In this document: piece by piece, positions 54,755-55,102 of the stretch
Layout of the letters: each line of letters begins with the position of its first letter
How positions within the stretch are numbered: the stretch's first letter is position 1
NCBI GenBank assembly: GCA_028534125.1
Contig: CM052816.1
Coordinates: 66,466,001 to 66,530,000 of the forward strand
Reading direction: 5' to 3'
Source of the DNA: Lama glama
Lineage: Eukaryota
DNA: 64,000 nt
Program-made: the position numbers and the translations under genes
Notes under the pieces: generated by a model
Seen by the model: the letters and a program-made list of their open reading frames with translations, nothing else
What the model was told of the DNA's origin: nothing
The model's database searches: none

Positions 54755-55102
54755 TTTCGCACTAATGGTGTCGTTTGATAGTATGGTGTAGCCCTTACTG
54801 AATTCACAGGTGCAGACCGATGTAACTCTTTGCAGGGTATGGTTCAAAAGTAATTCCGGAAGCTTGCTTAGGCATTTCTGTTTCAGATATGAAAGAAAAT
54901 CATTTGGTGAAGTCCTGATGTCATCAGAGGAGAGAAGATAGTTCTTGTATCTGATGATTACATAACTATTATTGTATAACTGCACTGTGTCAGGGGGAAT
55001 TTTGTTCAGCTTTACTTCCTTTTCTATCAATGAAGCACAAATGGGCAGAAGATAACAGCAGAGTAGAAAACTCAAGAAAGGGAAGGTTGAACGATTTGCC
55101 AT
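54278..55102 (-). CDS. GAPT: Candidate N-terminally extended GAPT (274 aa; signal peptide + ectodomain + TM + tail)
   Basis: In-frame ATG at 55102, just inside the splice acceptor. 116 stop-free codons precede the canonical ATG. The N-terminus [24 protein letters not shown] resembles a signal peptide. Confidence 0.6.

Follow-up and report, generated by a model that had tools for sequence, protein, structure and literature searches.

A long GAPT reading frame in the llama probably carries the eroded remnant of a leucine-rich repeat ectodomain

Does the gene for the transmembrane adaptor GAPT still encode part of an extracellular domain in the llama and, if so, what kind of domain was it? In the literature GAPT is described with "a short extracellular domain", adaptor ectodomains being "only a few amino acids", and is classed with LAT, NTAL and LAX as a transmembrane adaptor with too little outside the membrane for any binding (PMC4861716); four Grb2-type motifs are counted among its tail tyrosines, and the phenotype of the mouse knock-out is mild (PMC3342071). 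The stretch of DNA analyzed here, called the window, comprises 64,000 nucleotides from Lama glama (contig CM052816.1 of assembly GCA_028534125.1, positions 66,466,001-66,530,000). Positions given below are those of the window, and GAPT with all its features lies on the minus strand. There, a 274-codon open reading frame runs without a stop from ATG 55102-55100 to TAA 54280-54278; residues 1-116 (54755-55102) lie ahead of the Pfam GAPT domain, and the nearest upstream in-frame stop is a TAA at 55192. A preliminary description of the locus had read these 116 codons as a hidden signal peptide and ectodomain of a possible receptor-like long form. The comparisons reported here give good support to a more specific view, namely that the extension is a remnant of the ancestral signal peptide and leucine-rich repeat (LRR) ectodomain of an LRRC25-like receptor. 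Judged by its sequence, the camelid copy is also the most eroded of the long forms examined.

The canonical part of the protein, residues 117-272, matches the Pfam family GAPT (PF11770) over model positions 1-156 of 156 with 268.4 bits against a cut-off of 21.1. It is also the part held in common with human and mouse GAPT, including the CGIGC-bearing transmembrane helix, the four Y-x-N motifs and the acidic YILPD end; the llama gene differs in adding 116 in-frame codons for a signal peptide and an LRR-derived segment. The helix with its juxtamembrane CGIGC (residues ~127-149, 54656-54724) falls inside the Pfam match and contains the Kyte-Doolittle maximum of the protein (2.96, residues 126-146), and AlphaFold2 places a helix at residues 127-152 with a predicted local distance difference test score (pLDDT) of ~75. 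The cytoplasmic tail and stop codon (54278-54655), covered by the Pfam match and collinear with the tail of LRRC25, hold the motifs Y210-E-N, Y229-E-N, Y242-G-N and Y250-Y-N, which are invariant or nearly so among long forms. As far as sequence can tell, the protein thus has the one transmembrane helix and, after it, the tail with several Grb2 SH2-type Y-x-N motifs that characterize the family. The adaptor hallmark of few extracellular residues and no signal peptide does not describe the long frame and fits only if translation starts at M117.

Ahead of M117, residues 1-24 (55031-55102; MANRST, a hydrophobic core and ICAS) resemble a signal peptide, with a short polar start containing one Arg, a 17-residue hydrophobic run and the small residues C-A-S at -3/-1. 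Kyte-Doolittle hydropathy in a 15-residue window peaks at 2.43 within residues 1-30 and does not exceed 0.57 between this segment and the transmembrane helix, the two being separated by about 100 hydrophilic residues. Cysteines are found at C77, C97, C99 and C121, and sequons at NNS44, NHT87, NDT110 and NAS123, the last Cys and the last sequon lying after M117. Several elements of the preliminary description are borne out by these readings: the translation of the 116 open codons is exactly as it was quoted, a signal-peptide-like start is followed by an ectodomain and a transmembrane helix, and the four cysteines and four sequons are all present, with an additional NRS3 in the n-region of the signal peptide. 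The segment between signal peptide and M117 (residues 25-116, 54755-55030) aligns as an eroded LRR-derived ectodomain consisting of an LRRNT/LRR1 remnant, a half-deleted LRR2 and a truncated LRR3 (KCLSKLP). It runs into an LRRCT-like cysteine cluster, C97-x-C99 ... S114 ... C121 (54740-54814), whose four columns hold Cys in 21, 22, 20 and 22 of the 22 long forms, camelids being without the third. This C-x-C...C...C spacing is the one seen in LRR C-terminal caps. Its last cysteine, C121, falls in the short extracellular stub of canonical GAPT.

One simple possibility is that such a frame is open by accident. At the stop rate of the window, 0.059 per codon, an open run of 116 codons before a given ATG has a probability of ~8e-4; chance openness of the extension is therefore unlikely, in agreement with what had been claimed earlier. 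Stop-to-stop runs of at least 116 codons number 11 out of 7587 in the window, and among the seven of at least 140 codons several are L1-like and the GAPT long frame is the longest. A search of the extension against the llama's own genome gave a single match at E<=0.001, the locus itself, and no duplicate.

Long forms of GAPT are widespread among mammals. The 274-residue protein found 66 homologue clusters at E<=0.001, of which 21 are full-length long forms of 273-298 residues with 92-100% query coverage; the best match is Camelus ferus GAPT isoform X1 (273 residues, 96% identity over 100% of the query). The long forms that could be named come from Artiodactyla (Camelus, Hippopotamus, Cervus), Carnivora (Panthera, Hyaena, Lutra, Leptonychotes, Canis, Ursus, Ailuropoda), Perissodactyla (Equus), Chiroptera (Rhinolophus, Hipposideros, Miniopterus, Saccopteryx, Rousettus), Scandentia (Tupaia), strepsirrhine primates (Propithecus) and Rodentia (Ictidomys). 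Across these seven mammalian orders, Camelus included, the NCBI name is GAPT or isoform X1, so that the long form can hardly be called hidden: the bare observation is already in the databases as automatic RefSeq predictions. A lineage-specific origin, one of the two options left open by the preliminary description, does not fit this distribution, and the other, an ancestral origin, agrees with the LRR ectodomains found at the same place in opossum and coelacanth GAPT and in LRRC25.

The remaining clusters comprise one Camelus isoform X2 model (245 residues) and 44 proteins of 151-193 residues, nearly all short forms, from groups including whales, pig, bovids, simian primates, murid and hystricomorph rodents, afrotherians and xenarthrans; a short annotation is not proof of a broken extension in the species concerned. 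Bovids and Moschus are annotated only at 158-160 residues. Disrupted copies were seen in ENA/Logan contigs, with a frameshift immediately ahead of the M117 codon in P0075, a frameshift past the signal-peptide region in P0068 and a truncated extension in P0078, P0079 and P0084. Damage to orthologous extensions, which had been named in advance as a point against a long form, is therefore present in some copies, and many orders keep the frame open. In the ruminant-like P0075 and P0078, 87-127 open codons of the extension are followed by a departure from the GAPT frame; translation of such a copy would yield a small secreted LRR fragment and no membrane protein. A scan of metagenome contigs matched 58 pattern stretches, none coding for a relative.

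What the extension once was becomes apparent from the relatives and not from the llama sequence. Neither the Pfam and NCBIfam scan of residues 1-116, which gave nothing meaningful, nor the comparison of the extension alone with PDB entries, which gave only noise, identified a domain, and no Pfam LRR family matched the window protein or its extension at E<=1. In consensus, a long form reads as a signal peptide, then a Cys (FCD), a textbook repeat 'LxLLNLSSNCIRTLPxxVL', 'KCLKELP' and 'VCTCEF...NNTxCAEMLKSC'. Among 28 aligned relatives, Pfam LRR_8 was detected in 10 at E<=1 (best E 1.5e-6) and LRR_4 in six. Positions 28-105 of the family profile match solved LRR proteins, namely designed LRRs (3.8e-10), VLR-A (1.7e-6), LRRTM (4.6e-6) and GPIb-alpha (3e-4). 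For GPIb-alpha, VLR, Slit2 D4 and LRRTM the likeness to the GAPT profile is a generic LRR similarity limited to the repeat region; their tails are dissimilar to that of GAPT, and the window's own extension matches none of them.

Among 1.84 billion representatives, a search with the profile of the long forms found 28 matches at E<=0.001, including GAPT of Monodelphis domestica (300 residues) and of Latimeria chalumnae (337 residues) and two frog proteins named LRRC25 or LRRC25-like. Several of these proteins combine both domain types at the Pfam cut-offs of 21.1 bits for GAPT and 27 bits for LRR_8. Coelacanth GAPT scores 81.9 bits for GAPT and 42.7 bits for LRR_8, the Spea 'LRRC25' 37.2 and 62.8 bits, and the Dendropsophus 'LRRC25-like' protein 25.6 and 38.9 bits; opossum GAPT reaches 156.4 bits for GAPT and 25.2 bits for LRR_8, slightly below the cut-off. 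The CxC motif of the cap is present also in coelacanth GAPT and in LRRC25. Mammalian LRRC25 is absent from the 28 profile matches, and the link between GAPT and LRRC25 is carried by amphibian and bird proteins.

This link was followed by aligning GAPT long forms (24 rows including the window protein) with an LRRC25 set (seven rows: five frog, kagu and camelid exon 1) in hhalign, which scored the pair at 99.5% with an E value of 1.1e-22 over 234 collinear columns. The collinearity extends over the repeats, the CxC cap, the helix and the acidic YI(L/I)PD end. By this alignment GAPT and LRRC25 are paralogues. They may have arisen by whole-genome duplication; human 5q and 19p13.11 seem to have several paralogue pairs in common. 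Both have a signal peptide, a Cys-capped LRR block with CxC, a transmembrane helix and a tail with the order DYEN...(D/E)xY...Y-x-N...acidic-Y-I/V-I/L-P; LRRC25 differs in being a separate gene on another contig, in its QPRY...R motif and DYENxFV box, and in having more repeats. A bird LRRC25 searched against the llama genome gave 52 matches, mostly generic LRR, with LRRC25 itself on contig C403036 (exon 1 at L010:846-1643 and a tail exon at about L011:978-1091, both on the plus strand). The first of these exons codes for the signal peptide, repeats, CxC cap, transmembrane helix and a DYENMFVGQP box, and the second for a tail with an acidic EEYVIP end and its tyrosine motifs in the same order as in GAPT. 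The frog and kagu proteins have QPRY and DYENxFV motifs in common with camelid LRRC25 and are therefore true LRRC25.

Short GAPT-like proteins were also found as weak profile matches (E 5e-15 to 6e-4), namely P0087-P0091, which include Larimichthys and Collichthys, and P0083 from Crocodylus porosus (187 residues). These teleost and crocodile proteins have a Cys- and sequon-rich stub and no LRR block, and they may represent independent losses of the ectodomain or another paralogue.

Two changes separate the placental proteins from those of opossum and coelacanth in the joint alignment. The third repeat is complete in opossum and coelacanth ('LYLENNNLKSLP' and 'LYLEKNRLKQLP'), and all placentals have an 8-residue gap there, after which even intact placental ectodomains keep only about two repeats. 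In addition, the M117 column holds Met in 22 of 22 long forms, Tyr in coelacanth and Ile in opossum. The start methionine of human- and mouse-type GAPT is, on this alignment, a placental novelty located inside the C-terminal cap. Its invariance in species with a long form suggests that the M117 start is used in these species too.

The extension shows signs of constraint outside camelids. Mean pairwise identity among the 20 non-camelid long forms is 0.70 for the signal peptide, 0.61 for the ectodomain and 0.63 for the whole extension, compared with 0.66 for the cytoplasmic tail and 0.69 for the canonical part. On a single topology with separate branch lengths, the ratio of extension to canonical tree length is 1.27 over 41 branches (the coelacanth row was omitted and the opossum branch excluded from the sum). 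The outer half, where its frame is open, therefore evolves only slightly faster than the tail, a part of known function. Three ectodomain sequons are retained in 19 of 24 sequences, and the NLS sequon of repeat 2 in 18 of 24, coelacanth and opossum included. Among non-camelid long forms the N-terminal Cys pair is missing completely in three bat-type sequences and reduced to one member in four; the paired loss suggests that these two cysteines form a disulfide.

Camelids depart from this pattern in several ways. Their copy lacks four residues directly after the signal peptide (SFCD, including the first Cys), has a 2-residue gap in common with hippopotamus and a deer-type sequence, and carries a deletion of its own of about 8 residues that joins repeats 1 and 2. 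Conserved cysteines have been replaced at NxC (now Y47), SNC (D61) and C(A/V)EM (S114), which brings the loss to four of the eight conserved ectodomain Cys columns; a ninth conserved Cys, in the signal peptide, is kept. The N-terminal cap pair is missing, one member being deleted and the other replaced by Tyr, and the C-terminal cap has three of its four cysteines. The RefSeq long forms, represented by Camelus ferus X1 (273 residues) and by those of dog, horse, bear, bat, deer, hippopotamus, tree shrew, sifaka and ground squirrel (283-298 residues), are alike in their start, signal peptide and motif order; the non-camelid ones retain the cysteines of SFCD and NxC, a complete 'LxLLNLSSNCIRTLP' repeat and the third LRRCT Cys, all of which the camelid form has lost. 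Among the long forms, the camelid kind stands alone in having an extension that finds neither a Pfam LRR model nor a PDB entry. With its repeat core partly deleted and four conserved cysteines lost, the camelid protein is unlikely to have a folded LRR domain able to bind a ligand, and the earlier suggestion that this lineage keeps a real ectodomain does not survive these comparisons. All camelid gaps relative to other long forms are nevertheless whole codons, and the signal peptide is identical between the window and Camelus.

Could the long frame of the llama still be translated? The start codon at 55100-55102 stands in the context AGCTGGATGG with G at -3 and +4; all 22 aligned long forms have M1 and A2. 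Upstream of it, a pyrimidine-rich tract with putative tandem AG acceptors (55115-55114 and 55112-55111; tract and acceptors at 55111-55130) would open a large last exon at 55113 or 55110, so that ATG 55102 is predicted to lie 8-11 bases into the exon, just inside it as had been proposed. The canonical short start M117 (54752-54754) has the context GCGAAAATGC with A at -3, and four out-of-frame ATGs (54963, 54924, 54903, 54875) lie between the two starts. Under the scanning rules of translation, a transcript containing ATG 55102 would mainly yield the long form, and the short form would need another transcript.

A candidate for this other transcript is given by Camelus isoform X2 (P0004, 245 residues), in which '...QFNQ' is joined to 'KCLSELP' precisely at K76. 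Residues 21-47 of this model match 55586-55666 in tblastn with 93% identity; this stretch corresponds to its second-to-last coding exon and would be an upstream exon, non-coding or spuriously coding, with a donor GT at 55585-55584 (CAG followed by GTAGGG). The putative internal acceptor is the AG at 54879-54878 (TCTGAAACAG followed by AAATGCC), which places the exon start at 54877, the K76 codon. The first 20 residues of X2 resemble L1 ORF2 fragments found elsewhere in the window, so that its long reading frame is likely to be a by-product of annotation. A transcript implied by the model would bypass the signal peptide and yield the short adaptor. An acceptor downstream of 55102, which had been listed as evidence that would speak against the long form, may thus exist at this place. 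By eye, an ATG at 55645 in the upstream exon, if this exon were spliced to 55113 or 55110, would start a short out-of-frame upstream open reading frame overlapping ATG 55102. The L1-like start of X2 suggests an L1-derived 5' exon, which is not near the gene in the window.

These observations can be arranged into a possible history. Ancestral GAPT would have been a type I protein with a signal peptide, about three Cys-capped LRRs, a transmembrane helix and a Grb2-type Y-x-N tail, LRRC25 being its paralogue. In stem placentals, an 8-residue deletion would have shortened the third repeat and a methionine, M117, would have arisen inside the C-terminal Cys cap, making an adaptor with no ectodomain possible. 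Constraint on the outer half may have been weak thereafter, with the extension open in many orders, frameshifted in some contig copies and bovids annotated as short only. In camelids the frame, start codon and signal peptide would have survived the partial deletion of the repeat core. Transcripts using the 55113 or 55110 acceptor would then be translated from ATG 55102 into a glycosylated 274-residue type I protein with a vestigial stalk, and those using the internal acceptor, with the exon start at 54877, into the 158-residue adaptor from M117. We consider it probable, at roughly 0.6, that the camelid long form is still translated in this way, as a type I protein with a vestigial and probably non-binding stalk, alongside the short adaptor.

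Several results weigh against this account. The X2 acceptor lies inside the extension, so that no signal peptide is possible in its product. The long forms were recovered through open frames, which makes their openness partly a matter of ascertainment. AlphaFold2 models built on 22-row alignments reached a mean pLDDT of only 39.2 for horse and 43.3 for the window protein, with ectodomain blocks at about 30-54 and no confident fold. Among the 22 tips, none has a higher extension/canonical branch ratio than the window lineage (2.22, resting on very few changes), and the camelid stem stands at 1.52 compared with 1.27 for the whole tree; these values fit relaxed constraint, though the branches concerned are short and noisy. 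Between the window and Camelus, five residues and a one-codon indel differ within the 116 residues of the extension and four residues within the 158 of the canonical part, counts too small to distinguish weak constraint from none. It could be argued that the camelid extension is an untranslated relic whose frame no stop or frameshift has yet hit, the sole functional product being the 158-residue adaptor from M117, made from transcripts that enter the exon at the internal acceptor or in some other way. The X2 junction between 55586-55666 and K76, the invariance of M117, the loss of the repeat core and four cysteines, the ratio of 2.22 and the repeated loss of the extension elsewhere (the five disrupted ENA/Logan contigs, the short bovid and Moschus annotations) would all fit such a relic. 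Yet three separate deletions since the split from other mammals have removed whole codons, and no stop has appeared in 116 codons of AT-rich DNA at 0.059 stops per codon; llama and Camelus have the start codon and its strong context in common, and between them the signal peptide is unchanged; the camelid stem ratio of 1.52 is near the overall 1.27; and the X2 frame, starting in L1-like sequence, may be a minor or spurious model. We therefore regard the absence of any translated long form as rather unlikely, though worth serious consideration.

The opposite proposal, that camelids possess a working ligand-binding receptor with a real ectodomain, draws on the open frame with its signal peptide, four sequons and four cysteines, and on the matches of other orders' long forms to LRR models. 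It appears very improbable given that the camelid protein is missing both LRRNT cysteines, half of repeats 1-2 and the third Cys of the LRRCT, that its ectodomain alone matches no LRR model and that even intact placental ectodomains hold only about two repeats. We give almost no credence to an origin of the extension by chance or as a lineage-specific, for example transposon-derived, addition with no relation to GAPT function. The AT-rich DNA and the L1-like frames of similar length elsewhere in the window might have favored it; the openness probability of ~8e-4, the single copy in the llama genome and the residue-for-residue alignment with long forms of seven orders and with opossum and coelacanth GAPT led us to reject it.

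Beyond the llama, GAPT may by nature be no ligand-blind adaptor at all and instead an LRRC25-type LRR receptor that gained an internal start in stem placentals, so that most placental orders would make two products, a surface receptor form and an adaptor (the groups concerned being carnivores, horse, bats, deer, hippopotamus, tree shrew, lemurs and squirrels); human and mouse would have lost the receptor half, and camelids would stand midway, with the frame intact and the fold gone. We offer this wider reading tentatively, at somewhat short of even odds.

Other features of the window were recorded in passing. L1 ORF2-like open frames are found at 13021-13473 and 34390-34830 on the plus strand and at 23143-23601 on the minus strand, with further L1 ORF2-like tblastn matches at 3819-3875, 13487-13537 and 23615-23671 on the plus strand. 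Positions 2001-4000 are the most GC-rich part of the window (0.47 compared with ~0.37) and include frames of 205 and 145 codons on opposite strands at 2473-3148; this could be a CpG-island-like region or a GC-rich repeat.

A full-text literature search, as far as the text of the papers was accessible to it, turned up no paper on a GAPT long form, a GAPT LRR domain or a relation between GAPT and LRRC25. If GAPT descends from an LRR receptor, it would be a concrete case of an adaptor derived from a receptor, with the ectodomain lost through a new internal start. For annotation, the GAPT "isoform X1" predictions would not be read-through artefacts, and the camelid version is best regarded as degenerate. 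LRRC25 and GAPT could be studied as a pair if their relation as proposed here is true. Since the literature on GAPT rests on human and mouse, functional knowledge of the gene would, if the two-product reading holds, come from lineages without the receptor half. If most non-primate, non-murid mammals do encode that half, GAPT of dog, horse, bat and bear may have a ligand or a function that is invisible in mouse and human.

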